NCBI GenBank assembly: GCA_000002435.2
Contig: CM018793.1
Origin: Giardia intestinalis
Lineage: Eukaryota
Strand: one strand, 5' to 3'
DNA length: 64,000 bases
The notes below the pieces were generated by a model, which saw only the letters and a program-made list of their open reading frames with translations, was not told the origin of the DNA and did not search any database. This document shows, one piece after another, positions 10,285 to 64,000 of this stretch. The translations under genes were made by a program, and so were the position numbers. Position 1 is the first letter of the stretch, and every line of letters begins with the position of its first letter.

Positions 10285-10679
10285 TTATGGTGTCTCCATG
10301 CAGCACGTTGACGGATGCACAGAACAAGAAGCTGGCGATGCTGGTCAACGTGCGTGAGCAGCGAAGAAAATCCTATCTTCTTGACCTTCTTAGTGGTATG
10401 GTGCTTGAAAACAAGCTTTACTCTTCGATAAGTAACTAGAATACAAGATGCAGTAATTATACAGCCAATAAGTAATTCACTTATATGTAACTATTCATCA
10501 CGTGGTTAACTTTTAATAGAAAAACATACCAATACTAAAATTATAAATCCTGATCATAGACCATCATGAACCAGCATATCCTGCCTTACGTAATGTATGG
10601 TTTCAGTGATCTGATTAAATGAAATATTCATATTTATTAGTTAAGCGAGTGTAAAACCTGAAGGACTTTTATAAAAGTA
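10285..10679. promoter_or_regulatory. AT-rich divergent intergenic spacer between the tRNA synthetase (minus) and cysteine protease (plus) start codons
   Basis: About 395 bp with no ORF and AT-rich composition, flanked by two outward-facing start codons; Giardia promoters are short AT-rich initiator regions (established knowledge). Confidence 0.4.
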
Positions 10680-46160: not shown

Positions 46161-48524
46161 TTGATACAATTTTTAAGAGGCGAACGCCTTTTGTACATTA
46201 TGAGACTGCACTTGCTATTGTACGCCTTTATATCCATGATCTTGGCATCTATTACATACGGTAGCTCAGACATGACAGTGGACGGACCAGTTATGGCTCT
46301 AGCAAGTTTCAACGACAAGAGACTGATAGATTTGGTTTCTCTAACTTCTGATCGTAAGTGTATTACTATTCAAACTAATAAGGGCCCGGTACGTTTACCA
46401 AGCGGCCGACCAGCCAATTCAGACGTTACTCTCAGCTCTGAGGGTTATCCGTCTATTTGTCCACGCGATAATGATGATTCTGTGACACAGAATCTTATCA
46501 TTATCCAAATAAAGGTGTTAGACTTTAGCAGGAATGGACGCATGGATCTGCTGGTATCCTTAGCTCCTGATAGTTATAAAATTGACCGTAACAACAAACA
46601 GGTGGTCAACCTTCTGTATCTTCAGGTCGGCGAAGAGAAAAGCAAGTACTCACTAAACACCCTTCCCACTCTTTTCCCAGAAAATACTATAGACTTTTAT
46701 AAGCCCATCAGATTGATCAATACAGCAGAACCGCCAGTCCCTCTCATGATAAACGACAATGTGTATGCACCAGACTTGGTCTATGCAGAGAATAACACAA
46801 CACTGAAGGTACTCATCAATCAGCTGGCAGACTATACAATAGGAGACGATGGTAATATTTCACTATACCGCTGTCTAAATGATGCTAAGGTGGCTTCCGA
46901 TTGTTTTAGAGATGCAGTACTATATGATGAAAGCATGTCAACGATACAGGGTGCTGAGGTTTCTATCCCACTGGACATATCGCAAGTTGACCTCAGTGGA
47001 AACTGCAAGCCTGAGCTTGCACTGAAAATGGATGTTAAGTGCCACGACATAAGTCAAGATGCCGTCTTTATTGATCAGATAAGTAGACTTTCAAAGGTTT
47101 CTTCGGCTGTGCTCAAGCAACACCTCCCCTATGGACAGACTGACGTTTGCTCTGTTGTGCAGGTCTTCACTCTTAATTACTCCAGCACATCTCCCGTTAC
47201 CCTCTATACACCAAGCCCTGAGCATTCTATCTTTCTCGGAGTAGGCGTTGGCATGCTCACCTTTGTCGACATAAACAATAATGCAGCGATAGATATTGTC
47301 TTCACCATCTGTCGAGGACGTGAGACATCTGAATGCCTTTTAGAGAATAGCATTCACATCCTGCACAATAAGCAAATGTATGTTTGTGCGTCTTCCTCGA
47401 GCACACAAGGTCTTTGTCGCGGGAAAACAGACATGTGTTTGGATGACCCCAACTATGCCTTTAATAGCCGTGAGATGGACATTATCATATATCCCATAGC
47501 TAATATTAAAGAGCCGGACACCGAAGAAATAATCTCCTTAACTGCAAACACTATGGCCAGCCAGTTCAATGTTCCTCGTGTAGTGGCTATAGACTACCGA
47601 CTCCAACGCAAGCTATCGCTCATTGTTCCAGTGAAGGCAAACAACGAAAACACACTCCTTATCTTAGATCTAGAGCCATGCAGTGGAAGTACTAGTAAAA
47701 TGATGGACGCATGGGAAAATAAGCGCTATGATGAGCTTCTGCAGCTACATCAGAGCGCACTCAGAGAGACTGAGCATTGTCCAGATTACCTTCAGATAAG
47801 TTCTATTGCAGACTACCGCGTTTACCCCTCCTATGTCGATACTAATCTTCTCAACATAGAGAACACTAAGGGCGCCTACCTCGGTAACTTTGTTGATTTT
47901 GTTGGAAATGGCCATGCTAACCTGGTTGTCAACATTCCTAGTACATCGGTTTTCCTCCAGATTTCTCTGCCTCAGCAGATCACTGGCTTCTTTCTCAAAG
48001 TCAAGGGCTTGAATGATCTTTGCTTTGACTCTTGCAAGTCAGCAAATCCTAAATGGAAGAAATGTTATTACACAACTGCGGTACCTGGAGTTAGCTTCAA
48101 GTATGTTACTAGCGATACTTCTGCTGTTCCAGCTGCGGGGGCAGGATCGCAGTTCTGCACTATCGCGGCTAACCCGCTTATGCTCCCGCATATGTTCTGG
48201 GGCATTAGCGACGTTGCCCAGTACATCGACGTCCTCTTTGCCGGGAACATTTATTCAGGCAACGACAACTATATGTACTGGAGCGGAATTGTCCCCAATT
48301 CTTATGTAACCATATCGCAGTATCCTCCGAGCGCCGCGTCTCGGTGGGTTCTCAACTCGTTTCTCCCTGATGTCAGAGGAACCGAATCGTTTGTCATTGT
48401 CTTCGCCCTGGGAACCTTCCTCATCCTCCTCCTCGTCACAATCAGTCTCCACTGCTGCGAGCTGAAGCGCGACAAGCAGCTAGAAAGACAGTACTCCCAC
48501 AGCCTCTACCGATCAGAGCTTTAG
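46161..48524 (+). CDS. Type I membrane protein with FG-GAP / integrin-alpha-like beta-propeller repeats (ITFG1/TIP-like candidate)
   Basis: Signal peptide 'MRLHLLLYAFISMILASITYG'; repeated 'DxNxdGxxDl' motifs ('DFSRNGRMDLLV', 'DLSGNCKPELAL', 'DINNNAAIDIVF', 'DFVGNGHANLVV'); C-terminal TM 'FVIVFALGTFLILLLVTISL'. Confidence 0.45.
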   Translation: MIQFLRGERLLYIMRLHLLLYAFISMILASITYGSSDMTVDGPVMALASFNDKRLIDLVSLTSDRKCITIQTNKGPVRLPSGRPANSDVTLSSEGYPSICPRDNDDSVTQNLIIIQIKVLDFSRNGRMDLLVSLAPDSYKIDRNNKQVVNLLYLQVGEEKSKYSLNTLPTLFPENTIDFYKPIRLINTAEPPVPLMINDNVYAPDLVYAENNTTLKVLINQLADYTIGDDGNISLYRCLNDAKVASDCFRDAVLYDESMSTIQGAEVSIPLDISQVDLSGNCKPELALKMDVKCHDISQDAVFIDQISRLSKVSSAVLKQHLPYGQTDVCSVVQVFTLNYSSTSPVTLYTPSPEHSIFLGVGVGMLTFVDINNNAAIDIVFTICRGRETSECLLENSIHILHNKQMYVCASSSSTQGLCRGKTDMCLDDPNYAFNSREMDIIIYPIANIKEPDTEEIISLTANTMASQFNVPRVVAIDYRLQRKLSLIVPVKANNENTLLILDLEPCSGSTSKMMDAWENKRYDELLQLHQSALRETEHCPDYLQISSIADYRVYPSYVDTNLLNIENTKGAYLGNFVDFVGNGHANLVVNIPSTSVFLQISLPQQITGFFLKVKGLNDLCFDSCKSANPKWKKCYYTTAVPGVSFKYVTSDTSAVPAAGAGSQFCTIAANPLMLPHMFWGISDVAQYIDVLFAGNIYSGNDNYMYWSGIVPNSYVTISQYPPSAASRWVLNSFLPDVRGTESFVIVFALGTFLILLLVTISLHCCELKRDKQLERQYSHSLYRSEL

Positions 48525-48648
48525 CGCTCTGTACCGACATCAGTCGACCTTGCAGCCTCAATCCCTATGAGCAGATCGCTTAGTTCACTTGAAGGGAATT
48601 CGAGAGTATAGAAATAGACATAGGGACACAGTGCCACTGAAGACCAGG

Positions 48649-49602
48649 CTACTCCTGATCTACCTTGAGGGTCTCCTCAGGCACGTCAACCTCTGACGGG
48701 TCGTTGGTTGGCTCTGCAGTGAGGGCGTCTGGCTGAGTAAGGGCGGTGGCCTTGGTGCGGTCGTACAGCTTCTTGACGGCGGCGCAAGGGCAGCACTTGA
48801 GCACGCTGATGGCAACCGTGACCAGGACACCCACGGTAACCGTCAGGGCAAGGGGCCAAACTGTCCAGCCAATATCGTAATCCATTGCGACAGTGAACGT
48901 GCACGTGGGCGACCCTGCAGTAGTGGTACCGTCTAACTTCAAGGTAACTCCACTCACTATATTGCCATAGTTCTTCTCGAGTACGTCTTTAAGAGAAGAG
49001 ACAGTCATGGTGGTAACAGTAGTTGTTGATGAACTTGTCGATAGGTTCGATAATTTAACCGTTGCCATGAGGCGCTCGGCGGGGGGAGGGCCTGTGGGCA
49101 CTCCATTGAGCTTGGGCCAGTGTCGCCTAACCTTCTCTGTGACAAGATCGGCCCACGGCTTTGTTTCTGAGGTGGTAAACTTGCTGTTGACGAAGTTGAA
49201 GTCCATTAGGCAGCTGGCACCTTCTCCGTTTGTGCATGTGAATTTCTGGCCCGACTGCGTGTATACAAAGCTTGAGGCCTTTCCGCCGAAGACCGTGCTG
49301 GAAAATGCAGTGATAGCGTAGCTCTTGCTGTCTCCGGTTTCTGTGGTAATGGATGCGCCAGGAGGATTGGCCAGTTCGATTCCGAAGTGGCTCGTGTCAT
49401 CGAACCCGGCCTTTAGTATGTTGATCGAGTGCTTGTTTACCCTGACCGAGAACGTCAGGAGAACCGTTCGGGCACCGTTTGTCGTGGAGGTGCACGAGCC
49501 AGTGTATACCGTGTTGTAGCCTACCCGCTCACGGGGCTTGTGTGCTGGAAACGCCCCTGCCAGCAGGGCCTGGAAGAGGATGAGAGCAAATACCCCGGCC
49601 AT
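48649..49602 (-). CDS. Hypothetical type I membrane protein, Thr/Ser-rich ectodomain
   Basis: Signal peptide 'MAGVFALILFQALLAGAFP', 'STSSSTTTVTTMTVSS', C-terminal TM 'WPLALTVTVGVLVTVAISVL' plus 'KCCPCAAVKK' tail. Confidence 0.5.
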   Translation of the reverse strand: MAGVFALILFQALLAGAFPAHKPRERVGYNTVYTGSCTSTTNGARTVLLTFSVRVNKHSINILKAGFDDTSHFGIELANPPGASITTETGDSKSYAITAFSSTVFGGKASSFVYTQSGQKFTCTNGEGASCLMDFNFVNSKFTTSETKPWADLVTEKVRRHWPKLNGVPTGPPPAERLMATVKLSNLSTSSSTTTVTTMTVSSLKDVLEKNYGNIVSGVTLKLDGTTTAGSPTCTFTVAMDYDIGWTVWPLALTVTVGVLVTVAISVLKCCPCAAVKKLYDRTKATALTQPDALTAEPTNDPSEVDVPEETLKVDQE

Positions 49603-49618
49603 TTGTTAATATTTGCGT

Positions 49619-50800
49619 CTAATTTACACCGTCCAAATCCGGCTCGGCAATGATGCCCTCGATGACCGTCAGCAGCGAGTCGGCTAGATAGCAGCGGTCT
49701 CCCAGCGACTCCACAGTGCTCAAGTGGAGCTCCCGCAGAAGGGGATAGGCTCCCAGGTCCTGCAGGCTTTTCTTTCCGTGATCGGTGTGGCAATACAGGA
49801 GCAAGCAATCGCTAAGGTTGGCACACGTCTCTTCGCTGGGAAACCTAAGCGACGAAAGGCTAGCCATGTGCGCCTGAATCCTCTCTGGCAGGGCAGCATG
49901 CTCTTCTGGAGTCAGCCCGGCTCCACGTGGCTCCGCTTTGGTCTCAAGGCTTCTCTCGCAAACAAGAGCTAGCAAGATATGTTCTACCAACGGCTCAAGC
50001 ATCTCGGCGGTCTGAGCCCGGTTCTCGGCCTGATCGGACCCAGTAGCGGACTGGTCAGCGGGTCGGAGCATCAAAAACATGTTGTGGAGGAGCTGGCTGT
50101 ACTGAAAGGATATCCCTGGATAATCAGCGGCTGTATCAACAATGTGGGCTCCAACAAGGTTCGCCGCGAGAGAGTCGACAAAGAGGTGCGCGACAGATGG
50201 AGCGTCCCCTGTGGCTGTGGCAATGTTGATCAGCAGGTAGAGCGATCGCTGAATGAGCGGAGCAGTGCCAACCGTTGCTTTAGTGAACGATATGTTAAAC
50301 ATGAGCCCTGCAGCATTTGGCAAGCTAGGAGACGTCAGCAGGGTCCTAGTTATCTCCAGACATCGAGTAAAATTTATCAGAATGGCAGCAAACACCGTGT
50401 GAATCCTATTCTCCGGTGTTAGACGCAGGAGGGCCATTAGAAGGTACTCTAAAAGAGGAGATAAAGACGGAGAGGCGGCGAGGGCGTCTAGAAACTCCTG
50501 GGCTCTGCTTGCAGCCAAAAAGACTTGCTGCGAGAGGAGAACCTCCGTGAGCTCCTCCTCCCGCTCTGGCGTGGACCTGGCCTTTGCAGACAGGGCATCG
50601 ATGACAGCAGGGGACGACAGGGCGGAGATTACGTCGGGGTCATCCGAGGCCCGTACCAGCGTCGTGAGCGTCTCTGCAGTTAACGACGGCGGCGTCCTTT
50701 TCAGCGCAGAAAGACAGGGATCCATGTTCAGGGAAATGTCCTCAGTTGCCGGGGGCTGGCTCTTTGCCCACAACAGTGGGGGATTTTTTGCTACCCCCAA
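49619..50800 (-). CDS. Hypothetical Leu-rich helical-repeat protein (possibly HGH1/DUF383-384-like)
   Basis: 393 aa; C-terminal 'LLLYCHTDHGKKSLQDLGAYPLLRELH' resembles the conserved HGH1 C-terminal motif as I recall it (weak). Confidence 0.3.
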   Translation of the reverse strand: MGVAKNPPLLWAKSQPPATEDISLNMDPCLSALKRTPPSLTAETLTTLVRASDDPDVISALSSPAVIDALSAKARSTPEREEELTEVLLSQQVFLAASRAQEFLDALAASPSLSPLLEYLLMALLRLTPENRIHTVFAAILINFTRCLEITRTLLTSPSLPNAAGLMFNISFTKATVGTAPLIQRSLYLLINIATATGDAPSVAHLFVDSLAANLVGAHIVDTAADYPGISFQYSQLLHNMFLMLRPADQSATGSDQAENRAQTAEMLEPLVEHILLALVCERSLETKAEPRGAGLTPEEHAALPERIQAHMASLSSLRFPSEETCANLSDCLLLYCHTDHGKKSLQDLGAYPLLRELHLSTVESLGDRCYLADSLLTVIEGIIAEPDLDGVN

Positions 50801-51444
50801 CCTGGGGTGTAAAGCAGCCGGACTTCACCGTGCACAGAATAGAGCCTATCTTGGCTGGGACTACTTCCGAGTCCACACCGGTGGCTTTCTGCCGTACAAC
50901 ACACCACATCATTGGAACAAGAAGGCGTTGTGACTGAGGGGCTCTGGGCTGCTTATCCAATGAAGGGGCGGCTTCCAAGCTCACTGGCGGGATATACCTA
51001 CGCTAGTGCACATTGTAGGCTACGCCAATGGAGCAGAGCTACGGCTCCGTCTGAACGGCCGCACATCCCGCTGTGCACCCCTGGATTAGCACTCGTGGCT
51101 ACACGTACTGAACAGAACATCCCCGCCAGCTCGCCTGTTCTGCTGATACTGTCAGGATCACCGATCCCTCCAACGTCCCAGTAAGCCGGCCATCCGATAC
51201 CGGCCAGGAAGCACAGATACATAGGACATCGGAGGATGCTCGAAATCTCCTGCTCTGGAATGGCTGTCGTCCTCCCCCTCTGGGTCTCTATTATAGTTGT
51301 ACTAGTAGTCCACTGGCGTCCAACTCAATAATCACACACTCATCAAGCTAGTAACATCCAGAACAAGCCCTCTATAGATTCCTGCTAGTGTAACTGCCAC
51401 GTGGTTGGAAGCGCACTACTAGAGGCTGGCCATTTACTATAGGG

Positions 51445-54042
51445 CTACTTTGTAAGGATGGCCACTATCTCCTCATAGCCTTTCTTCCTGGCCATGTCGA
51501 GGGGTGTCTCTGTACATGCACAAGTTAAATGGGGTTCTGTATTGTACTGGGTTCTTCTAACATCTCCTTCCTTCTCTGCAAGAAGTCTTACACACTCTAT
51601 GTTGTTATTATCTATTGCCCATATAAGAGCAGTCCAGCCGTACTTATCATGCATCCCCGCCTCCCTGCCCAGAAGTAGCTTGACACATTCTGGATGATTA
51701 TTACGTACTGCACCCATGAGAGCAGTTCTACCCTTATTGTCCTGCATGCCCCCCTCCTCACTCAAGAGTAATCTAATACATTCTAGATGACCGTTATATG
51801 CAGCAAGGATGAGAGCAGTCTGACCGTCACTGTCTTTCATTCCACTTTCGTGAGCTACTAGCTGTCTCACCGCTTCTGTGTATCCATATATTGCCGCTCT
51901 CATAAGTGCTGTTCCTTCGTATATTTCCCATTTATCTATTTTGACATATTCTGCTTTTCGTCCTTTTTGAAGAGATATAAGTGTTTTCAGCACCTCTACA
52001 TCGTTTGTATCTGCCGCCCGCATAAGAGCCGTAGTACCTCTGCCATCTGTTGGGCTGAGAATCTCTACGACGTCCTCGTAGCCCGCTTGTGCAGCAAGCG
52101 TCAGAGCTGTATCGCCATCATCATTCTTCTTTTCCTTGTCAGAGAGCTGATTCCTGACTGTTTCAATGTCTCCAATGAAGGAAGCACACATGAGTTGGGT
52201 CCAGGATGAAGCCTCGTATTCACGAAGAATCATAGCAGTGTCTGTACGGTCATTATTGAGAGCATGCACGAACGCTGTGTTCCCACTGCTATCCTTTATT
52301 CCTTTCTGGATTGGTATAAGCAGTTTTACCATCTCAGTATCTCCTCTGGCTGCTGCCCTCATGAGTGCCGTGATATCATCTTTATCTGTAGGATCGTCGT
52401 GCTCTACGAGGATCTCAACGAGTTCTGGATGTCCATTCTTAAGAGCGTAGTATAAGGCGTTGTGATTCTGCTTATCCTTTATTCCCTTTTCGTGACCAAG
52501 AAGGATTTTTACCATTTCAAGATTCCCCTTTTGTGCGGCAACCATTAAGGCAGTTTTGCCTTCATTGTCAGCCAGACCCTTTTCATGTGAGGCCAGAAGG
52601 GATGCAACTTCTGCATGGCCTTTCTCTGCGGCGATCATCAAAGCAGTTTGATTATTCTTGTTTGTCTCTCTACACTCGTGAAGAATGAGAATCCTGGTTA
52701 CCTCAGGATGGTTGTTGTATGAGGCGTGCATGAGCGCAGTCCAGCCGTTCTTGTCCTGGAGGCCGTTTTCCTCCCCAACAAGCAACTCGACGGGATCAAC
52801 GTGCCCCTGCTGGGCCGCGTGCATGAGGGCCGTCATCCCCTGTGCGTCACGCTGACCAACGCCGAGTCTTTCTTCAAGCAGCATCCAGACGGTCTCCGTG
52901 CTATTCGTATGCGCGGCACGCATCAGCCTTGGCAGCAAAAAGAGGCTGGACTGAGGGTCAGTCGTGTTCATCCTGTCACTGAACTGTGCAAGCCTATTCT
53001 CCAGTGCCTTAATCATAGCTAGATGTTCCTTACTTTGGTCTTCAAGTGCGTCGATCTTAGTAGATTTAATCTTAACATCCTCTTCCAGCAGCGCGATCCT
53101 GGCGTTAGCGCCATTCAGCGCAGCCTCCAAGGATCCGCACTTATACTTCAGCATCACGCACTGACCTCCCAACTCACCAACTGGGATGTCGAATGTAGCG
53201 AGCGTCTCGTGCAGCTCCCTGGCCGTCGGCCTCCTCTCTGGCTCCAATACGAATATCCGCTCCAGAACACTCTTTATGAAGCCATCAGTGACACCGCTCA
53301 GGTCCGGCCTCCACCCATCGATGAAGACCTCTGCCGGCTCCTTGCCCCCCAAGAAGTCCGGTCTCCTCAGAGTTACTAATTCATAAATGATGACCCCGAG
53401 GCTCCATACGTCGGAGGCAGGGCTGGCCTCGTTGTGGAGGAGCACCTCGGGGGCAACGTATGCCATTATTCCTATGAGAGTGCTCCCACTCCACAGGGCG
53501 TCCCTGCAGAGGCCGAAGTCGGCGATGACGAAGCGCTCTCCGTCTGCGTTGATAAATATATTGGCAGGCCTGAGGTCGCGGTGGACGAGGCCTCTAGTGT
53601 TTGCTCCATTGACGCTGTGGAGGTAGGCGAGGGCGGCGGTGAGCTGTTTCATGACAGAGAGAATCACGCCGGCAGACACGGGGATCTTCCTTCGCTTGTG
53701 CTCAGTGAGGAGGCGCTCAAGGGTCTTGTCGTGCCGGTCCGTGACGACGTAGAAGAAGCTTTCGTCTTCGACAACTTGATGGTACTTGATGACTCCCGGG
53801 TGAAAGAGGGTAAAAAGAGCGGCCAGCTCAAGCTTGATAGTATCCACGCTGCTCCTATCCAAGCCTTCAAGCAAGATCTCCTTCACGGCGAGACTCGGAT
53901 AACCTTCGAGGGAGTAGACTACACCTGTGGCATCTCTTCCTAGCACGCCATTCAGCCGCTCGTGGAGCTCCTTAAAGGTGAACGGTGGGATGGTGGGAGT
54001 CACTGCAGAAAGACTGAATGCGTTATTGCCATTGTCGGCCAT
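51445..54042 (-). CDS. NEK-type protein kinase with a coiled-coil linker and a long C-terminal ankyrin-repeat array
   Basis: Kinase catalytic loop 'LVHRDLRPANIF', 'IADFGL', 'YVAPEVL'; degenerate Gly-loop 'LGRDATGVVY'; about 14 ankyrin repeats ('TALMHAAQQGHVDPVELLV', 'TALMIAAEKGHAEVASLL', 'TALMRAAARGDTEMVKLL' ...). Confidence 0.75.
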   Translation of the reverse strand: MADNGNNAFSLSAVTPTIPPFTFKELHERLNGVLGRDATGVVYSLEGYPSLAVKEILLEGLDRSSVDTIKLELAALFTLFHPGVIKYHQVVEDESFFYVVTDRHDKTLERLLTEHKRRKIPVSAGVILSVMKQLTAALAYLHSVNGANTRGLVHRDLRPANIFINADGERFVIADFGLCRDALWSGSTLIGIMAYVAPEVLLHNEASPASDVWSLGVIIYELVTLRRPDFLGGKEPAEVFIDGWRPDLSGVTDGFIKSVLERIFVLEPERRPTARELHETLATFDIPVGELGGQCVMLKYKCGSLEAALNGANARIALLEEDVKIKSTKIDALEDQSKEHLAMIKALENRLAQFSDRMNTTDPQSSLFLLPRLMRAAHTNSTETVWMLLEERLGVGQRDAQGMTALMHAAQQGHVDPVELLVGEENGLQDKNGWTALMHASYNNHPEVTRILILHECRETNKNNQTALMIAAEKGHAEVASLLASHEKGLADNEGKTALMVAAQKGNLEMVKILLGHEKGIKDKQNHNALYYALKNGHPELVEILVEHDDPTDKDDITALMRAAARGDTEMVKLLIPIQKGIKDSSGNTAFVHALNNDRTDTAMILREYEASSWTQLMCASFIGDIETVRNQLSDKEKKNDDGDTALTLAAQAGYEDVVEILSPTDGRGTTALMRAADTNDVEVLKTLISLQKGRKAEYVKIDKWEIYEGTALMRAAIYGYTEAVRQLVAHESGMKDSDGQTALILAAYNGHLECIRLLLSEEGGMQDNKGRTALMGAVRNNHPECVKLLLGREAGMHDKYGWTALIWAIDNNNIECVRLLAEKEGDVRRTQYNTEPHLTCACTETPLDMARKKGYEEIVAILTK

Positions 54043-54545
54043 GACAGTTTATTTTCAAAAATAAGACCAAGCGATTGGATTGAACGAGTGATTGGGCCGC
54101 ACCCTCAGAGGCTACAAGAGAGCACAGGCATCTGCCAGCCTCACTTCTCGAATCTGTGTTCACGACAGCAGACACGTCGTCCCATACACTGTGGAGCGCC
54201 CTTGCATGCGCTGGCATGGCGTCCCTGTCTGTCCTGGCCCGTTCGCGACTATCACGCATTACTAGTACTCTGCGCCAGCTCTCTCGACTGTGTAGTCATG
54301 GCAATTCCACGTGTGCACAGGCCATCTAGCAGCACTCGCCCGCGTCCTCTGCTCCTCCGCCACTCATCCACGCGGGCCATGCAGGGTCTAGTGGCCCTTC
54401 CAGCGCTGGCCACGTTGGTGCTCTCTTCTGATGCTGCATGCCCTACAGGATCACCCGTGCTCACCATATTCCTAGAACCCATCACGCACCAGGGGGCTCC
54501 CTCGCAATTGGTGCCCAGAAAGTCGCGAGCAGGATTCATCGGCGC

Positions 54546-54562
54546 GTTTACTACCTAAGTCA
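54546..54562 (-). promoter_or_regulatory. Conserved VSP extended polyadenylation signal (ACTTAGGTAGTAAAC, matching the ACTYAGRTAGTRAAY consensus) overlapping the TGA stop
   Basis: Minus-strand sequence '...GGG AAG GCA TGA CTTAGGTAGTAAAC' read directly from the window. Confidence 0.7.
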
Positions 54563-56836
54563 TGCCTTCCCTCTGCATATGAACCACCAGCAGAGGAAGC
54601 CCACAAGGCCAGCCACGACGACCACCACGGCGACGGAGATACCTGCTATGGCCCCCGTGGAGAGCCCGCTACTCTTGTTGGCGCCAGAGGACACACACTT
54701 GTCACCCTCCAGACTGTAGTCGTCCCCGCACTGACCGCACTTGTTCTCCTCGCTGCACCTGACGCACCCGTCGATACTGCAGGGGATGCACTTCGTTCCG
54801 TCTGTGTTCGGTCTCTGGTCTTTACTGGTACAGGCCTCGCACTTGCCGCCTGCTCCACAGTGCGAGCATCCGTCAATGGTACATGTGAAGCACCCGCTCC
54901 CAGCCAGGTTGGGTTTATTATTGCCGCTACACGCTGTGCACGTGGCAGGGGCCATGCCAGGAGCCTCTAGCGCTGCTGGGGCCGTGCATGCTGTGCAGCC
55001 ATATACCCCCACATATGCCTTAGCGGTGCTGCCAGCCCCTATCACTGTGCCAAGGGGGTTCTCGCAGGCCAGGACAGACTGATCAGTATTGGATGCCCCC
55101 GGGACCAGGAAGTACCGGCTGTTCTCGCTGGGGGCGGTGCACCTCCCTCCCTCGGCAGTCTTGCACATGTGGCTGCCAGGAGCCTTCTGAGTACTGTAGC
55201 AGCCGCCCATGTACAGGAAGTACCCGGCAGCACACTGGGTGCAGACGCCATTGGCACAGGTGTTGTCACCCTTAGTTCCTGTGCAGACGCCATCGATGGG
55301 GAACGTGGCGGGGTCTCCGCACAGCGAGCAGTACTGGGAGAACGCCCCGGCGCTGTCAACGACGACCGCCCCGCAGGCCCCAGACGTCCCCCCGCAGGCC
55401 GTGGGGTCCTCGCAGGCCTTTGTGCACTTCACCGGATTGGTTCCCTCCTTGCGATAGTTGGGCTTACAGGAGTTGCAGGTCAACGAGCCAGCGAAGGTGC
55501 ACGTTGCACACCCATCGACTCCATCTGTCGGGTTATCACAGGGGACGCATGTGCCGGGGGAAGTGCCCCCTCTCAAGAAGAACCCGGTCTTGCAGGTTTG
55601 GCATTTGGTCTTGTCAGCTTTCTCAGAGCAGGTTGCGCAGTTCTCGCCACAGGCGTCACATGTGAAGCCGCTGTTGGTGTTCTTGATGTACCCCTCCAGG
55701 CACTCTGTGCAGGTCGGCGGTGTGGCGCCAGTCCTCGAGCACTTCTTACAGCCGACGATGCCCTGGTTCTTCTTCTCTTGCTCTGTCACTGTGTCGCTGC
55801 ATAGAATACACGCTGTTGCGTCGTCTTTCATGAATAGCCCACTATCGGTGGCTTTGCAGCCGTCGTCTGTCTTTTCCACGCACGTCGTCGTCCCGTCGGC
55901 AGCAGTTCTTACCAGCTTCCCGTTACAATCGGTGCACCTCGGCTTTCCCGTGGCGTCACTATATTCGCATGCCGCGCACCCAGCTATGTCAGTAGCGCAG
56001 GCCTTGCACTCGTCTGCTTTTGGGTCTGCATAGCTATCACTACCACATCCACCAGCCTCTACACACTCAGTGCCCTTCAGGAACTTCCCCCCAAGGCAGG
56101 CGGTGCACTGGGTCGGCGTAGCAGACTCACACGTCAAACAGCCGGGTCCGCATTGCACACATGCACCATCCTTCGTAGCGTACCCTCCTTGGCATGCAGT
56201 GCACGTGGCAGCCCCTGTACCGCCACCTGGCGCCGTGCATGTGTAGCAGCCCGCCACCCCCGTGACTCCGTCTCGCGGAGTGACGTCTGAGCAAAGCACG
56301 CACTCGTTGCCAGGGGCTACTGGGCTGGCCGGGTTCTGGAATAGATACACAGCGTCTGCCTTGCAGGTGGTGCACACCCCCTTGTCGGCCGCCGTGCAGA
56401 TCTCAGACCACTGGCTCGTCTTGTAGCACCCGCCCATGAAGAGGAAGTACCCGTCCCCGCACTTTCCGCAGGCAGTATCCGAGCCCGCCAACGCGGTCCC
56501 GTCTGCCCTGGTGCACCCGGCCGCCGCGGCCTGGGGGGAGCCGGGGGGCCAGCAGAAGCCGCCGACCGGGACGCCCCCGGCCCTGCACTCGGTGCAGATC
56601 TCGGAGTACCCGACCGTCTCGCACTTGTCGGTCTGGCAGCTCGCGGCATGGTCTCCGTCTGGCTGATAGGCCGCCGCGAGTGTGACTGCAAGCGTGGTTC
56701 CTACACACAGCAGTGGGTATCGCCTCAGAGGGCCCGCCTCCGCCACCTGCTGTGTACCGAATGTTGTGCTTGCAATGGGGAGTGCATGTTGAGATGTGGT
56801 CGATAGGCGCCCTGCAGACCCTGTGGTGGGCGGCAC
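54560..56836 (-). CDS. Variant-specific surface protein (VSP) with canonical TM-CRGKA C-terminus; atypical 5' end (no ATG adjacent to the signal peptide)
   Basis: C-terminus 'ISVAVVVVVAGLVGFLCWWFICRGKA*'; many CXXC and 'GGCY' motifs; stop codon embedded in the VSP extended poly(A) signal. Confidence 0.85.
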   Translation of the reverse strand: MPPTTGSAGRLSTTSQHALPIASTTFGTQQVAEAGPLRRYPLLCVGTTLAVTLAAAYQPDGDHAASCQTDKCETVGYSEICTECRAGGVPVGGFCWPPGSPQAAAAGCTRADGTALAGSDTACGKCGDGYFLFMGGCYKTSQWSEICTAADKGVCTTCKADAVYLFQNPASPVAPGNECVLCSDVTPRDGVTGVAGCYTCTAPGGGTGAATCTACQGGYATKDGACVQCGPGCLTCESATPTQCTACLGGKFLKGTECVEAGGCGSDSYADPKADECKACATDIAGCAACEYSDATGKPRCTDCNGKLVRTAADGTTTCVEKTDDGCKATDSGLFMKDDATACILCSDTVTEQEKKNQGIVGCKKCSRTGATPPTCTECLEGYIKNTNSGFTCDACGENCATCSEKADKTKCQTCKTGFFLRGGTSPGTCVPCDNPTDGVDGCATCTFAGSLTCNSCKPNYRKEGTNPVKCTKACEDPTACGGTSGACGAVVVDSAGAFSQYCSLCGDPATFPIDGVCTGTKGDNTCANGVCTQCAAGYFLYMGGCYSTQKAPGSHMCKTAEGGRCTAPSENSRYFLVPGASNTDQSVLACENPLGTVIGAGSTAKAYVGVYGCTACTAPAALEAPGMAPATCTACSGNNKPNLAGSGCFTCTIDGCSHCGAGGKCEACTSKDQRPNTDGTKCIPCSIDGCVRCSEENKCGQCGDDYSLEGDKCVSSGANKSSGLSTGAIAGISVAVVVVVAGLVGFLCWWFICRGKA
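56241..56654 (-). repeat. Inverted repeat copy A (VSP 5' coding region), identical to 63587-64000
   Basis: Reverse complement of 63601-63750 matches 56501-56650 base-for-base; the two ends also match; identity breaks exactly at 56654/63587. Confidence 0.85.
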
Positions 56837-57192
56837 TCGGCCTTCCTAGAAGCTATGCTCCCAGTAGATGGCTACAGTGAGCAAGCCCTGACTCGTCTGG
56901 CTTCAGTTCCGTACGTAGTTTATTGCTCAGTCGATTGTGAACAGCCCTTGAGGCCCGGTGCCCTAATCCGGTATTGGGGATCTGACTATGTAACACGCCA
57001 CTGAAGTAGAGTGGGTGTTTCCAAAAGCGCGTGACTTGATGCAACTCTCCAGTGCATCGGTTCGCCCTACCACGGGGGATAGCCGGGGCTGGCCTGGACA
57101 GGGCTTTTCTCTCGTACCGATCAGTTCACAGGTTTCCTTCTTATGTTTACAACATACTAATAAATAAGCCAAGCCAGTCCTAGGCACACCGC

Positions 57193-60100
57193 ATGCTGAT
57201 TCTCCTGTGTGCTGCTGCATGTCTCGCCGAGGCGTGCGGGACAGGACCTGCATGTGTTAACGGAGACTGCGCCTACGGGGACGGAGCACACTTCTGCCAG
57301 TGCAGGCGGGGCTGGGCGGGGGCTGCGTGCGATGCTCCCCGTGCAGGGTTCTGCAGGGTAACTACTAATACTGGCAAGGCGTCTACAGACAGGGCCGTCA
57401 ACTACGCCTGCCTCGTGAACGGGACGGAGTGCACAGGGTCGAGCAAGTGCACCTACTACGCGGGGGCGTACTCGTGCGACCCCTGTCCCGATGGCTTCGT
57501 GTCCTACGAGGGCGAGTGCCTGCCGAGGGGCTGCTTCAACACCGACGACTTCTCAAACCAGGAGGCAACGAAGGCCCCCTGCAACGGCCGCGGCCGCTGC
57601 CTCCTGAAGGACCCCGGGCTGGCCGGGCTGAGTGCTGACGACTACGCGTGCGACTGCTACCCGATCTACCGCGGGGGCCTCTGCCAGTCGTGCGACGACG
57701 CCAACGCGATCGCTACAGAAAGCTCTTCGTCTGACGCCCTCCCTACGTGCAATGCGCGGGCCTGCCAGGACTCGGATGGCATCGTGTGCTCAGGCCAGGG
57801 AACGTGCACCCTCGACGTGGGCCTCGATCGCGAATCGTACCGCTACCGCTGCAAGTGCAATGATGGCTACACACGCGTTGGGCACAGGTGCGTCAGGACG
57901 GAGTGCGTGGCCACGATTGACGGGTCCCCGGTCGTCTGCGGGGGCTTCGGGAAGTGCACAGATGAAGGAAACAACGGGGTGTTCAGATGTGTTTGCGATT
58001 CGGATGCAGTCCAGGTCGATAAGTTTTGCACATATTCCGCGTGCACAGACGAGTCCCGCTCAAAGATCTGTGGCGGAGTGGGCGCGTGTGTGCGCAATGG
58101 CGCTGGCTATAGTTGCGATTGCCGAGGGCTTGCCACGGGCGACCTCTGCGATACTTGCACTGACAAGTCTGCTAAGATAAATGGCACCTGTGTTCCAGTG
58201 GGGTGCCTCACTTCAAACAACCAGGAATCATGCAAGAACGGAGGAACATGTGTCAAGTCCAACGGCGAGTACCACTGCCGCTGCCCGGACATGCTCTTGC
58301 CGTCGACGGAGAGTGCACGTCCCCCGCGTGCATGGACGAGGAACTGGGGAAGGTCTGCTCGGGGCACGGCACGTGCAAGACGGACGATCTACGAAATATA
58401 CAATGCACTTGTGATCAGGACTATACCTACATCGCTCCGGGGCGTTGCATCTTGAGCACTTTGGTAGATAGCCCTGCCACGGTTTGCAGTGACCATGGAC
58501 GCATTGTCGTTAGTGCTGAGGCTCCTGATACGATGACGTGCCAGTGTTCGCCTATCCACACAGGAGCTAAGTGCGCAGAATGTGATCAACAGAACGCGCA
58601 AATGATTGGCGAGAAATGTATTGCAAAGAAGTGCATTGTGCAGCAACAGCCACCGGATCCACAGCCCAGTCTGCGCACGGCTACTGCTCAGGATATCTGC
58701 GGGAACACAGGCACGTACACCACTTATGGTGATCCGAGCAATCCGTTCATCACATGCGTCCCTAAAGATGCTGATAGTGGAAATGTCTCCGCCTACAACG
58801 GCACCTTCTCTGCTAAACCTGGATGTGTATTTATCAGTAAGATAGACAAGACAAGAAGATTCTTTTGTGGATTCCTTGAGAATATAACAGAAAACCTGTC
58901 AACTGGTAACTTGCCTACGTGCGCTAAACCTTCCGAAAAACCCGATCTGCCTGAAACATGTACTCACTGTCCAACTGACTTTCACCTTGTACACTTTGGG
59001 GAAAACAATAGCACATGTATGCACAAGAGTTGTCACGATGGCAAATCCAGTCATATGTGGTACAATTACTGCGGCGGCGTGGGAGACTGTATTCAGAAGA
59101 AGGATAAAAGCGGATACGAGTGTGATTGTGGGACTGCTGCTAAATGGGATCCAAATTTGAAGGCGTGTGTTACTGATGCATGCAAGCTCAACAAGAGTCT
59201 TGCTGGCCCCTATGCACCAGACTACTGTATTCCTCAGTCTACCTTTACACTCGAATGCACTGTCGGACGGGACGCAACGTGGCAGTGTAATTGCACTGGG
59301 GACTATGTTACGTACAACAAGACGTGCATTTCAAAGAGTAAGAACGCTGATCCAAAGACTCAGCGAGCAAGGGGACTCTGTGGCGGCCCCGGGGCGGGAT
59401 ATATAGACAGTACTGGAACCTGCGTCTGCAGCAATGGCTTCCTCAAGATCGGTGACATGTGCTACAGCTACGACTGCCTGCCAGTTGGCATATCAGATAA
59501 CATAAGGAATCCGGATATCAACGTGCTTGTCTGCTCCGGAAAGGGGGTCTGCGCATACAACCAGCTGACTGGCCGGTACGGCTGCGAGTGCAGCGACGGA
59601 CTGGAGGCCTTCGGGGGCTACTGCACTCATCCAGGATGCGCCGGAAAGGTAATGCATAACGGAGAAATTAAGTATGTTGAGTGCAAAATCTACGATGGAA
59701 CAACTGGAGATTGTACAAACGATAAGGGCACATATTCCTGCAAGTGTACTACTCCGTATAGATCTGTCAATGGGATCTGTGTTCATCAGCGTTGCGTATC
59801 GTATGATAACGTCTATTGCGGAGGAGATGTCCTGGCTGCATGCGTGCAGGGGAGTAATTACTATTACGGGTGTGTCTGCTCCGAAGGCTATGAGAGGGGC
59901 CAGCTCAATTCGGAATGCATTCCAAGTAAGTGTGTTTACAGAAGGCTGCTGAGTGATCCCACTATTGCATGCAATGGGTTAGGAACATGTGGCGGAGAAG
60001 GATCTTTGTTGAAGAATAGGCGGTGTGAGTGCAAGTCTGGTGCTAAGCTAGTCACACTTAGAGATGTGAATGGGGAGTTGAGAGAAACATGTATATTAAG

Positions 60101-62249
60101 TGAGTGCATTTCTAGTGAGGACGGAGTGGAACCGCCGATTATCTGTGGAGGACTAGGCAGTTGTGGGTCCACAGGATGCGTATGCGATCTGGGGACAAAG
60201 TTATTTAAAAAGGCTTGCTTTGGCATCAACTGCTTTATTAACACCGTAGATGATAGCGGACAACTTGTTGAGTCTGTGTGCGGTGGCGAGACCGTTGGGG
60301 TGTGCACAAAGATAGCGTCGCACGGCGATCGTCGAGACTACGCTTGTAAGTGCAAGGACCCGAAGCCTGACGAGTATGAAGAACTTGATGGGTTCTGTCT
60401 ACCAAAAGCTTGCATATTTGAAATCACAACCTTGACTAATCAGCAGGTGAGGACGATGTGCGGTGGAAAGCAGTTTGGAACATGCGTTCTTAATGCTACT
60501 CAATCATCCAAGTCATACTGTAAGTGCATAAATCGATATGACATTATTCAAATAACAAATGGAAAGTGTATGAAGAAAACCTGTCTTAGCGACTCTCTTT
60601 CTGGAGGTCCGGAGGGATACGTTGAATGTTCTGGACATGGGAAGTGTATAGGGGATCATATTGTGGGGTACTCGTGCAATTGTGACGAAAATTATCAAAC
60701 GGTTGCAGACGATCGCCGTTATTTGTGCGTACCAGCTGTCTGTGTTGTATCAGAGACAAATTCCAGTACTATATGCAACGGAAGAGGGACCTGTCAGTTC
60801 AAGACAGACCCAGGAAAGTGCGAGTGTAGGCCTGGGTATGATGGTACCAAATGTGAGACGTGTGCAAATGGCTACAAGGAACACACAGATGCACAGTGCT
60901 ACCTCAATGGCTGTCCGGCAGACAATTGTGGCACGGAGGAAAATACTAGCGTAGGGGCTTGCCAATTTAGCGGAAACAGTTTTGCTTGCGTCTGCGTCAA
61001 CTCGAGCTTCGTCGTTGACAGTGCTAGCAAGAAGTGCCGAAAATCCAGATGCGTTTGGTCGGATCCATACGATCAGACAGAAAAAACGTGCTATGGCATG
61101 GGTACGTGCAATGATAACGGCGAGGACACTGGGGCGTGTGTTTGCAACCCCGGGACAACCCTAGTCGGGACAAACATCTGTGTTTATAGCCAGTGCATCT
61201 CGGATGGAAGCGACCCCAAAGCAATATGCAAGGGGCGCGGGACATGCGTAGAGGGCCCTGTCGCCGGGACAGGACTGTGCAGATGCGACAGCAGCAGATA
61301 CCGCACAGACAAGAAGACCGGCCAGTGCTTTGTCAAGGAGTGCTTCGGGGCACACGAGAGCATCCTGGCCGAGGTCTGCGATGGCGGTGGAACATGCAGT
61401 GAAGACACTAAAAAGTGCAACTGTAGCGTAGACGGCTTCCAGAGCCTCGACGGCCAGAACGGCTGCGTGCACAGCAGCTGCGTCTCGTCGAACAACAAGC
61501 TTTGTAGCGGCTTTGGGGCCTGCGAGAAGACCGGTGACACCTACGGCTGCCTGTGCGCAAGTTACTATACTCTGGTCGACAAAGACTGCATCCCCACAAG
61601 GTGTCTCAAGGACGGGAAAGTCTGCAACGGCGGCGGCACGTGCTCCGGCGAGGGATCCTCTGCGACCTGTAGCTGCAACCAGGGCTGGGCTTCGCTGAAT
61701 AACCTCTGCTACCCGGCAGCCTGCGTTTCCAGTGGGACGCTCTGCGGGGGGAATGGCAACTGTCCACTTTCCACAGATAGTACATGCGAGTGCAAGTATG
61801 GGTATGAAAGTGTTCTTGACCAGCTCTGTATCAGCAGCCAGTGCGTCCAGCGCGGCACCGACGGCACCGTGACGATCTGCGGGGGCAACGGCAGGTGCGT
61901 GTCTGAGAACGGCGTGACTCCCAGCTGCGTGTGCAACGAGGGCTTCTCTCTCACAAGCGACTTCGTCTGCGGAGTCCCTGCTCCATCCAACAAGTCATCA
62001 AGTACCATAACGATTGCAGTCGTGGTCGTCGTCCTCCTCGTCCTCGTTGCAGTGGCCGGCTTCCTCGTCTGGTGGTTCGTGATACGGCCCAGGAAGAGCG
62101 GTGAGTTGAGGGAGCGCGCCCCGCGGAAAGGCCCTAGCTTTAGTGGCTCGCAAAAGCTCAAGAAGCAAGCAAGCTCCAAGGCGTCGCTCCACGCCACTGC
62201 GCCCCTACTGAGCCGGTCATCTCATGCCGGTTCTAGTGTCCAGCTCTAG
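57193..62249 (+). CDS. Large EGF-like high-cysteine membrane protein (HCMP), interrupted by a single frameshift near 58291-58305 (ORFs 57193-58455 and 58203-62249)
   Basis: Signal peptide 'MLILLCAAACLAEACG'; EGF-like Cys spacing continues seamlessly across frames ('YHCRCPDML|AVDGECTSPACMDEE'); C-terminal TM 'ITIAVVVVVLLVLVAVAGFLVWWFVI' with basic cytoplasmic tail. Confidence 0.65.
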
Positions 62250-63534
62250 TTCGCCGCCATCCATGCAAGATATTACAGCATGCACGAGTTGGCCCTCCAA
62301 AACTGTAAATCTGGGTATAAGACTCACTCAGCTCGAGTAGAGGAATCATCTACTGAGAGTAATTGTCCCTCGCCTGAAGCGTGTCCAGACGTCTCACGGG
62401 CAGCAAGCCTGGCCCTCTGAGGGTGGGGTGGTTGTAGGTAGCAAGCAGGGACTCTCCTCCACTGGTGCAAAGGGACGACCAGGGGCCCCGTGCGGTCGTC
62501 GGTGCCCGTGCCTCCGTGTCTCGTGCAGCGCAAGCTGGAGATCAGACCAGCCCGGCGACCAGTGCAGAGCCCGACAAGTGCAAGGCGGTGGGCGTGGGTG
62601 TCATCCAGCAATCAGAGGGATACCACAGCGAGAGGACAGGGGCACATACGGACACCACCCACCCGGTCCCCATCAGGAGCCCCCTATCAGTCCTCTTCTA
62701 CCCACTAGCTGGACCGGGACCCAGGGACTGCAACTGTAGGAGCGCTGCCCGGGACACAGCCGGACGGACACCGAGGGGCCCAGCCAACGGGGAGCCCCGA
62801 TGGCAGCAGTTGTGATAAATGGGAGCATCTAAAAGGACAGCGGCCAGAGCCTCACCCACCGTGAAGCGAGGGACCTCTAGCAAACCACACGAGCCTGTGA
62901 GAAGGCCAGGGCTTTAGACGCACACTCTCAGATAGCGCACGTCCCCGCGGAGCAACCGAGGAAGGCAAAAGACTCTGGATACAATACTAGAGAGAAGCCC
63001 CTGTTTGCTGTCTACAACCAACTCTCGCCCTCAGACTGGCCAGGAATTGAACGAGAAGTTATTCGTGAGACTCCTAGATCACGCTCAGATGGGGGCTTAG
63101 CAGCACAGTATAAACGGATATCAGTGTCTAGGGGAGCAGCCTGTTTGGCGTTGGCCGACTTAGTCTTGAGCAGAGCCATCCTCTCTAAGACGACCTGTAT
63201 AAAGAGTGAGAGCAATAGCAAAGCATCAGGATAGTGATCGCCAGTTGGGTGCGGTAGAACACGTGATAGTTACGGGTGTCACATACAAGAAGGCTGTGGG
63301 CACTATGGTAGAGGACAGCACTCAATACTCCAGAGCTGGATGCCACTGCGCCCTAAGTACTGGTAGAGATGCGATCTGACAGTCAGCACTCTCCACTGGG
63401 CACGTATTGGACAGCCTTTTGAGATGGAAGTTGATGATAATCGAGATTGACTGGTAACTCTAAAAACAGAGCTTGTTCACCAGAAGAGTGCGCTGCCACC
63501 AGCAGAGCTTTATCACCATCTGTGTCGCACTATA

Positions 63535-64000
63535 ATGTTGCTGATTGCATTGCACCTTGCGACAAGCATACTCGCGGCGCCTTGCCAGCCAGACGGAGAC
63601 CATGCCGCGAGCTGCCAGACCGACAAGTGCGAGACGGTCGGGTACTCCGAGATCTGCACCGAGTGCAGGGCCGGGGGCGTCCCGGTCGGCGGCTTCTGCT
63701 GGCCCCCCGGCTCCCCCCAGGCCGCGGCGGCCGGGTGCACCAGGGCAGACGGGACCGCGTTGGCGGGCTCGGATACTGCCTGCGGAAAGTGCGGGGACGG
63801 GTACTTCCTCTTCATGGGCGGGTGCTACAAGACGAGCCAGTGGTCTGAGATCTGCACGGCGGCCGACAAGGGGGTGTGCACCACCTGCAAGGCAGACGCT
63901 GTGTATCTATTCCAGAACCCGGCCAGCCCAGTAGCCCCTGGCAACGAGTGCGTGCTTTGCTCAGACGTCACTCCGCGAGACGGAGTCACGGGGGTGGCGG
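63535..64000 (+). CDS. VSP gene, 5' portion (runs off the window end); canonical start and signal peptide 'MLLIALHLATSILAAPCQPDGDHAASCQ...'
   Basis: Frame traced by hand from ATG at 63535. The mature N-terminal ~140 aa are identical to the minus-strand VSP at 56241-56654. Confidence 0.7.
   Translation, partial: MLLIALHLATSILAAPCQPDGDHAASCQTDKCETVGYSEICTECRAGGVPVGGFCWPPGSPQAAAAGCTRADGTALAGSDTACGKCGDGYFLFMGGCYKTSQWSEICTAADKGVCTTCKADAVYLFQNPASPVAPGNECVLCSDVTPRDGVTGVA
63587..64000 (+). repeat. Inverted repeat copy B (VSP 5' coding region); extends at least to the window end
   Basis: See copy A; identical translated ORFs 56403-56708(-) and 63447-63848(+) in the ORF track independently confirm it. 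Confidence 0.85.

Follow-up and report, generated by a model that had tools for sequence, protein, structure and literature searches.

The analyzed window is a 64,000-nt stretch of chromosome 5 in the new reference assembly of Giardia duodenalis WB. With a probability of roughly 80%, the feature studied here is the inner edge of a palindrome-like inverted segmental duplication of about 19.2 kb on this chromosome, consisting of two arms of about 6.18 kb. The sequences compared show directly the repeat, how far it extends in protein comparisons, both of its boundaries and an asymmetry between the 5' ends of the two VSP copies. Each arm would carry a 72-codon stub of an HGH1 homologue, a complete gene for an 865-aa NEK kinase and the body of a VSP together with its 3' flank. 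Duplications of this class have already been published (Adam 2010, PMC2996952; Xu 2020, PMC7000408), and the locus is an unlisted and atypical member of the class. The features are as follows.

49619-50725, minus strand: HGH1 homologue GL50803_00137679 (368 aa, KAE8305954.1), an exact protein match with a single chromosome 5 accession
50509-56684: left arm, about 6176 nt, with the 5' stub region of the HGH1 homologue, the NEK kinase, and the VSP 3' flank and body
51445-54042, minus strand: NEK kinase with ankyrin repeats, 865 aa, in both arms; Pfam Pkinase and Ank matches
54458-54559, minus strand: VSP 3' flank, with an AGTAAA poly(A) signal at 54547-54552
54560-56665, minus strand: body of the minus VSP, 701 codons plus stop, ending in CRGKA
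56666-56716, minus strand: decayed 5' end of the minus copy, homologous to the signal-peptide coding region, with CCA at the ATG position and no Inr
56685-63566: unique spacer between the arms, 6882 nt
57193-62249, plus strand: disrupted EGF-like HCMP gene, annotated as GL50803_00113268 (420 aa, 57193-58455) and a 1238-aa HCMP (58533-62249)
62250-63534, plus strand: region upstream of the plus VSP, without detectable coding similarity
63533-63539, plus strand: VSP initiator TAatgTT, which encloses the ATG of the plus copy; read from the sequence
63535-64000, plus strand: 5' part of the plus VSP (KAE8305958.1 / XP_001705332.2, 718 aa), with a predicted stop at 65691, outside the window
63567-64000: visible part of the right arm, perfect from 63586, with a predicted end at about 69742

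A base-by-base walk identified a perfect inverted run of 415 nt between 56251-56665 on the minus strand and 63586-64000 on the plus strand, the right side stopping at the window end. A match of this length cannot arise by chance. The original prediction of a perfect inverted repeat of at least 414 bp was thus correct in substance, with minus-arm coordinates that were 10 nt off: the proposed interval 56241-56654 gives 111 of 414 matches, as compared to 414 of 414 when moved to 56251-56664. A repeat search returned arms at 56251-56684 and 63567-64000 (434 nt, 99%); the next 19 nt inward of the perfect run match at 14 positions, and weaker homology reaches 56684/63567. No other repeat of at least 60 nt was found in the 64-kb window. 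The inner boundary falls at about codons 12-18 of the VSP coding sequence, where the 5' ends of the two copies are still recognizably homologous yet diverged.

The two VSP copies are oriented head-to-head (<- ->) and the plus copy starts at the ATG at 63535, both as first proposed. The annotated plus VSP (P0122, KAE8305958.1) begins with the 155 aa encoded on the plus strand of the window. Comparison of the full-length proteins showed that its residues 18-718 are identical to the minus copy (701/701) up to the stop codon, in agreement with the expectation that the repeat passes the window end. Both copies terminate in ...GLVGFLCWWFICRGKA, with the transmembrane segment and CRGKA ending of a VSP. 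The body contains 12.1% Cys and 31 CXXC motifs, as for a Cys-rich VSP ectodomain (about 12% Cys, many CXXC), and matches Pfam VSP PF03302 with 135 bits against a cutoff of 31.4.

The 5' ends of the copies differ. The plus copy has an ATG, an Inr (the VSP initiator consensus is PyAatgTT; PMC2996952) and a putative signal peptide, read from the sequence as MLLIALHLATSILA, whereas the minus copy has no in-frame ATG, Inr or signal peptide and is thus a ψVSP by the criteria of Xu 2020 (PMC7000408). The right (plus) copy is the sole member of the pair predicted to be competent for expression, and the supposed pair of VSPs contains only one intact gene. The minus-strand interval 54560-56836 is only a stop-to-stop open reading frame, in which no in-frame ATG precedes the repeat. 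An ENA sequence (L001) and DH (L002) have the same start-less 5' end, which is thereby conserved in three sequences. An apparent ATG for the minus copy in another isolate was rejected, as P0126 owes its first M to a GTG that a prokaryotic gene finder called as a start; the DNA reads GTG or GCG in three sequences. A metagenome scan gave 0 matches to the 5' end of the plus copy. In the 1.3 kb upstream of the plus VSP, blastx against the fetched proteins matched only the VSP N-terminus, with no ψRT or other coding remnant. Only in the new WB assembly is the plus-type 5' end seen joined to this VSP body, at the right inner junction.

The repeat between the VSPs is real and not VSP-specific, being part of a multigene arm of about 6.2 kb that runs leftward through the 865-aa NEK kinase to about 50509. 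The identical NEK protein (P0149) is annotated twice in WB, as KAE8305955.1 and KAE8305959.1, at positions flanking the locus (865/865 residues); past 64000 the identity of the right arm rests on proteins and duplicated accessions, and may therefore conceal synonymous or intergenic differences. The WB accessions are ordered as 5954 (HGH1 homologue), 5955 (NEK865), 5956 and 5957 (HCMP pieces), 5958 (VSP) and 5959 (the identical NEK865).

The promoter side and the first 72 codons of the HGH1 homologue are located within the arm, and the remainder of the gene is unique left flank. In the 2007 Sanger assembly, a 74-aa stub ORF (P0233, XP_001705328.1) is equal to the HGH1 homologue for 72 codons and departs from it thereafter, at about 50509. 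The stub lies two accessions from the NEK kinase XP_001705330.1, and the full gene (XP_001704974.1) is found elsewhere in that assembly. Thus, the presence of both stub and full gene in the 2007 data indicates two distinct outer junctions in an independent data set. The outer boundary is located about 4.05 kb past the VSP stop codon. The inner boundary has the appearance of an endpoint of homologous recombination, and the outer boundary is an abrupt break inside another gene.

The 5-kb EGF-like HCMP gene proposed to lie between the copies is real, although it is split by a 1-nt frameshift. A 1-nt deletion after 58296 breaks the reading frame into ORFs at 57193-58455 and 58203-62249. The gene has EGF matches and is at least 90% related to the intact paralogues P0157 (1685 aa) and P0159 (1687 aa). 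HCMPs are recognized by a signal peptide, EGF-like Cys-rich repeats, a C-terminal transmembrane segment and an intact ORF of about 1685 aa, and with its broken frame the gene in the spacer falls outside this definition.

Assemblies from other isolates break at the arm boundaries. In DH (A2), contig 153 corresponds end to end to window positions 56681-50534 and abuts contig 52 gaplessly at 50533|50534, the break at 50534 being 25 nt from the outer boundary in WB. An A2-like ENA metagenome contig (L006) stops at 50514, no more than 5 nt from the same boundary. From these break points we infer that both arms are present in A2 isolates. The divergence between WB and DH is 5.3% in the VSP body, 1.1% in the NEK gene and 1.7% in the unique flank, as compared to 0 between the visible WB arms.

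The complete identity of the visible 415 nt and of 1566 aligned residues would also be expected from an inverted duplication that happened once and very recently in the WB (A1) lineage, with arms too young to have diverged and without arm-to-arm conversion, and the two arms are seen directly in no sequence from another isolate. However, the exactly abutting DH contigs at both arm boundaries and the nearby end of the metagenome contig are expected if A2 also has two near-identical arms, which makes a one-off event unlikely. The shared break points, together with a WB-DH divergence of 1-5% against identical WB arms, rather suggest an old duplication that has been homogenized by arm-to-arm gene conversion. 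The comparison of 0% between arms with 1.1-5.3% between WB and DH takes the sharing by DH from the contig breaks only.

We infer the mechanism, the side from which the copy was made, the age of the duplication and its ongoing conversion, the origin by a process resembling break-induced replication and its direction being read from the boundary anatomy alone. The event, either break-induced-replication-like or a conversion over a long tract, would have been initiated by homologous recombination within two inverted, related VSPs. P0122 and P0002 are mosaic, with 95-100% at the ends and 30-55% in the centre, which shows segmental exchange within the subfamily. Copying would have run from left to right, taking the VSP body together with the NEK gene and a further 0.9 kb, and would have stopped within the HGH1-homologue gene at a junction without homology. 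Since the full HGH1-homologue gene adjoins the left arm only, the right arm would be the copy. The duplication would apparently be older than the A1/A2 split, and its arms may have been kept identical since then by recurrent arm-to-arm gene conversion. The original prediction of a segmental inverted duplication or conversion product is in line with these data, as is that of a plausible substrate for local inversion: recombination between the arms could flip the spacer. The proposed diversification of the VSP repertoire finds no such support, because inversion of the spacer between identical arms leaves the VSP product as it is, so that the structure homogenizes the copies instead of diversifying them. 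The gene order in the 2007 assembly (stub, NEK, VSP, HCMP 5' end) corresponds to the flipped isomer, a path that the perfect repeat may have made arbitrary.

Large palindromes maintained by arm-to-arm gene conversion are represented by the ampliconic palindromes of primate Y chromosomes and by plastid inverted repeats. The Giardia locus is similar in having effectively identical arms on the kilobase scale, a unique spacer and, with the duplication taken as shared by DH, a divergence between arms below that between lineages. It differs in being much smaller, in that conversion is deduced and in that selection for upkeep is not in evidence.

The locus might instead be a standard identical inverted VSP pair, that is, a VSP-centred duplication with two functional genes. 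Such pairs were described in Giardia WB by Adam et al. 2010 (BMC Genomics 11:424, PMC2996952), with vsp1267 as the prototype, and consist of complete identical ORFs with 2190-3847 bp of non-coding sequence between them and with identity ending 139-729 bp outside the ORFs. Like these pairs, the present copies are inverted and head-to-head a few kilobases apart, have identical bodies and abrupt divergence points, and terminate short-read and Sanger contigs. However, two complete identical ORFs are not found here, as identity begins inside the coding sequence, from codon 18 only, and one copy has no start. The spacer of 6.9 kb contains a 5-kb frameshifted HCMP gene in place of 2-4 kb of non-coding sequence, and instead of ending shortly outside the coding regions, the arm has its inner end within the coding sequence and runs on through another gene for 4 kb past the stop codon. 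The locus is in neither published table (Adam 2010; Xu 2020), and an entry for the left copy was not identified in the Adam 2010 supplement. A standard pair is therefore quite improbable.

The segmental multigene duplications of Xu et al. 2020 (Sci Data 7:38, PMC7000408) are defined by >95% identity over >2 kb and extend up to about 20 kb. With 415/415 nt, 701/701 aa for the VSP and 865/865 aa for the NEK kinase, the locus falls within this definition, its right arm being partly visible. According to that study, 6.9% of the WB genome is duplicated, in duplications of up to 20 kb that are enriched in gene-family members, and WB contains <- -> VSP pairs with a gene between them (ψRT or NEK). The present pair is not in Table 2 of Xu 2020, which contains pairs of intact VSPs only, whereas one partner here is a ψVSP; none of the listed cases has an HCMP between the copies, unlike this locus.

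An assembly artefact, either a false palindrome from a chimeric long read or the collapse or over-polishing of two diverged copies, is highly improbable. Only the PacBio-based assembly contains the second NEK copy and the right inner junction, about 20 kb is near the limit resolvable by the reads of Xu 2020 (PMC7000408), and short-read polishing of a long-read assembly can falsely homogenize repeats. However, the 2007 Sanger assembly independently holds both outer junctions, with the full HGH1 homologue and the 74-aa stub by the NEK gene; the two junctions of the unique spacer differ from each other and make biological sense; and the contigs of other isolates, assembled from short reads or 454 data, end precisely at these boundaries. 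A functional hairpin, in which read-through over both arms would produce long dsRNA for the RNAi pathway implicated in VSP silencing, is extremely improbable, as nothing but the geometry of long inverted arms with perfect identity speaks for it, the arms are 6.9 kb apart, and a duplication explains the structure fully.

The locus provides a Giardia inverted duplication with a boundary inside a VSP gene, in which an intact VSP and a start-less copy share one identical body, and thereby a testable model for the seeding of multigene duplications by VSP-family homology and for sequence exchange between ψVSPs and VSPs. The current picture of Giardia genome architecture is unchanged by the result. 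In practice, reads that derive from the VSP, the NEK kinase or the HGH1-homologue stub will map to more than one place, and care is needed in calling expression, SNPs and structural variants over about 50.5-69.7 kb, where the duplicated NEK kinase and the ψVSP could pass for heterozygosity or misassembly.

The left copy belongs to a multicopy module in which an HCMP is positioned head-to-head with a ψVSP, and at least three such modules are present on chromosome 5. In DH contig 44 (L002), an HCMP is head-to-head with a VSP that has the minus-type 5' end, and the NEK gene that comes next encodes 638 aa instead of 865 aa; the similarity to this paralogous VSP module stops at 54458. The possibility that L002 is the flipped-spacer isomer was ruled out because WB has an orthologous second locus, KAE8306008-6013 (S17, DRC1, Nup, hypothetical 6139, NEK638 and an HCMP of 1685 aa), which identifies L002 as a paralogous module. 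A 65-kb ENA scaffold (L005) with a 90%-identical NEK fragment represents a divergent paralogous context and is uninformative on the right arm.

The start-less ψVSP bodies of these modules might conceivably serve as archival donors that are pasted behind Inr-bearing VSP 5' ends by recombination, a speculation that we consider rather doubtful. Recombination would begin in the conserved 5' coding region, here carrying along the downstream NEK gene, and flip-flop inversion and arm conversion would hold donor and acceptor coupled. Pseudogene-templated conversion of antigen genes occurs in Trypanosoma VSG, Borrelia vlsE and Neisseria pilE/pilS, where, as here, start-less silent copies and expression-competent copies of a surface antigen share a converted body. 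The two Giardia bodies are identical and thus give no sign of conversion that changes the expressed antigen. Unlike in those systems, VSP switching in Giardia is regarded as epigenetic or post-transcriptional; donor use, if true, would represent DNA-level, pseudogene-templated renewal of the VSP repertoire, although switching is regarded as purely epigenetic.

The origin of the window was determined from several of its ORFs, which are exact matches to reference proteins KAE8305950-5959 of WB clone C6, encoded on a chromosome of 4,018,654 bp. The window thus corresponds to chromosome 5 of the 2020 PacBio assembly of Giardia WB (Xu et al. 2020; PMC7000408). A repeat search of the 64-kb window returned a single inverted pair, at 56251-56684 and 63567-64000 (434 nt, 99% identity), and no second repeat of at least 60 nt. 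In a base-by-base comparison, 415 nt match perfectly between 56251-56665 and 63586-64000, with the match cut by the window end; inward of it there are 19 nt with 5 mismatches, and then weak similarity only. The original prediction of a perfect inverted repeat of at least 414 bp was accurate with regard to the identity (414/414 after a shift), whereas the coordinates of the minus arm were 10 nt off (111/414 without the shift). The features of the locus are as follows:

49619-50725, HGH1 homologue (KAE8305954.1), the next gene leftward
50509-56684, left arm
51445-54042, minus strand, NEK865, an 865-aa NEK kinase
54560-56836, minus strand, VSP ORF (minus copy)
between the arms, spacer of 6882 nt with the EGF-like high-cysteine membrane protein (HCMP) gene
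63535-64000, plus strand, visible part of the second VSP (plus copy), which should end at 65691
63567-69742, right arm, predicted beyond 64000

The repeat had also been proposed to continue past the window end, and this was borne out at the protein level. The first 155 residues of KAE8305958.1 (XP_001705332.2, 718 aa) are exactly those encoded by the visible part of the plus copy, and its residues 18-718 are matched by the minus copy at 701/701 positions, through the stop codon. The repeat therefore spans the whole VSP body. NEK865 is represented by two WB accessions, KAE8305955.1 and KAE8305959.1, which flank 5956 (a 420-aa HCMP fragment), 5957 (HCMP, 1238 aa) and 5958 (VSP), and thus the kinase is also duplicated, in mirror position. 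The HGH1 homologue has one chromosome 5 accession only. In the 2007 Sanger assembly, a 74-aa ORF (XP_001705328.1), numbered two accessions away from the NEK gene (XP_001705330.1), is identical to the HGH1 homologue up to codon 72 and then reads MD*, as compared to SRAQ... in the full gene. The divergence after codon 72 places the outer boundary at approximately 50509, and the stub and the full gene represent two distinct outer junctions, in data obtained independently of the PacBio assembly. Each arm is accordingly about 6176 nt long, with nucleotide identity predicted beyond 64000, and the entire structure covers approximately 19.2 kb.

The minus-strand ORF ends with ...FLCWWFICRGKA, the hallmark tail of Giardia VSPs, and all matches in a protein search were Giardia duodenalis VSPs; Pfam, the cysteine content and the CXXC counts also support this identity. 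Several of the homologues (P0072, P0085 and P0089) carry source names that are obviously wrong, namely NAD synthase, dynein light chain and queuine tRNA-ribosyltransferase, probably because annotation was transferred in error or gene models were fused. In the plus copy, the initiator TAatgTT stands at 63533-63539, matching the published VSP consensus PyAatgTT (PMC2996952), followed by the signal peptide MLLIALHLATSILA. No coding similarity was found in the 1.3 kb upstream of this gene. In the minus copy the 5' codons are decayed, with CCA in place of ATG and PLLCVGTTLAVTLAAAY where the plus copy has MLLIALHLATSILAAPC, and no in-frame ATG was found upstream. The start-less 5' end was also observed in an A2-like metagenome scaffold (L001) and at a paralogous locus in contig 44 (L002) of the assemblage A2 isolate DH. 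The minus copy is a VSP pseudogene according to the criteria of Xu et al. 2020 (PMC7000408), and has kept the AGTAAA signal 8 nt past the stop codon. At 56666-56684, a site that borders the perfectly identical tract, the WB minus copy carries substitutions of its own, GCGGCCTATCAG as compared to GCGCCTTGCCAG in the WB plus copy, L001 and L002, which change APC to AAY, with loss of the first cysteine.

The spacer HCMP is a copy of two intact paralogues of about 1685 aa (P0157 and P0159) located elsewhere on chromosome 5. Relative to the DH paralogue and the intact WB paralogues, it has lost 1 nt after position 58296 (CTC[A]TTG), and for this reason its annotation is split into a hypothetical protein of 420 aa and an HCMP of 1238 aa. 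The deletion at 58296/58297 lies outside any homopolymer, which argues that it is probably a genuine pseudogenising mutation rather than a long-read error.

A spacer flipped between isolates was suggested by DH contig 44, which is collinear with window 61507-54458 (HCMP, minus-type 5' region, VSP and 102 nt of 3' flank) and beyond this stretch carries a NEK gene of 638 aa and further genes. Accession comparison ruled this out, since WB carries the same gene series at a second locus, KAE8306008-6013, and the DH contig thus represents a paralogous module of an HCMP head-to-head with a VSP pseudogene. A third such HCMP module in WB is KAE8305808/5809. Altogether, chromosome 5 has at least three paralogous modules, including KAE8305808/5809 and KAE8306012/6013, that combine an EGF-like HCMP with either a NEK kinase or a kinase fragment. 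In the DH module (L002:1424-8555), the VSP (P0001) is start-less and N-terminally frameshifted, head-to-head with an HCMP that is shortened (1463 aa) and whose C-terminus is unrelated. No similarity to the window was seen in the first 1.5 kb of this contig (L002:1-1508). The shortened HCMP and this segment point either to a rearrangement specific to DH or to a chimeric assembly. A more divergent Giardia is represented by a 65-kb ENA metagenome scaffold (L005), in which an approximately 90% identical NEK865-like fragment (9874-11161) lies about 2.2 kb from 218 nt (13335-13552) with 86% identity to window 62426-62646, upstream of the plus VSP; the relative orientation differs.

Along its entire 6154 nt, DH contig 153 matches window 56681-50534, and DH contig 52 begins at 50533, so that the two contigs adjoin with neither gap nor overlap. 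Collapse of a repeat is expected to produce such breaks at its boundaries. An A2-like SPAdes contig from an independent source (L006) stops at 50514. These break points suggest that A2 shares the duplication. Between WB and DH, the VSP body has diverged by 5.3%, the intergenic region that separates VSP and NEK by 6.8%, NEK itself by 1.1% and the unique flank by 1.7%, as compared to 0 differences between the visible parts of the WB arms. If A2 has the duplication, the arms have been homogenised within lineages, that is, by concerted evolution through arm-to-arm conversion. Between KAE8305958.1 and its WB paralogue P0002, identity is 95-100% in the first ~200 aa and in the last ~280 aa, and 30-55% in the central ~160 aa, a mosaic that clearly shows segmental exchange at work in this VSP subfamily.

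The inner boundary falls where both VSP 5' coding regions remain homologous; at the outer boundary the arm breaks off abruptly within an unrelated gene. Because the full HGH1 homologue adjoins the left arm only, the NEK-plus-stub portion of the right arm would be the derived copy; the right copy still has its resident intact 5' end. In the simplest model, a recombination event, either BIR-like or with a long conversion tract, would have started within inverted related VSPs, duplicated the VSP body together with NEK and a further 0.9 kb, and terminated by a non-homologous join, with recurrent arm-to-arm conversion afterwards. If the spacer were flipped, the VSP product would be unchanged, since the arms are identical. 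In the 2007 WB assembly, the stub, NEK865, a partial VSP and an HCMP 5' fragment are consecutive (XP_001705328, 5330, 5332 and 5333). This is the linkage expected for a spacer inverted relative to the new assembly, and could come from a genuine isomer or from an arbitrary assembly path across a perfect repeat.

Adam et al. 2010 described 14 identical inverted vsp pairs with non-coding spacers of 2190-3847 bp, in which identity stops 139-729 bp beyond the ORFs; the authors noted that contigs end at such pairs and that others had probably been overlooked (PMC2996952). The present pair departs from three defining features of this class. Xu et al. 2020, who defined VSP pseudogenes, listed 19 duplicated pairs among intact VSPs and reported duplication of 6.9% of the genome and multigene duplications of up to 20 kb (PMC7000408), a general category into which the present locus fits. 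The pair is in neither the Adam 2010 nor the Xu 2020 table. The structure is real and well explained, and is an atypical, unlisted example of a known duplication type.

The palindrome adjoins a block of three genes at 46200-50725 (KAE8305952-5954), which encode a TIP C2-domain protein (774 aa), a hypothetical protein (317 aa) and the HGH1 homologue (368 aa). A different WB chromosome, of 2.76 Mb, carries paralogues of all three with at least 90% identity and unchanged gene order (KAE8303757-3755), and both copies of the block were also found in DH. The block is a separate, interchromosomal segmental duplication.
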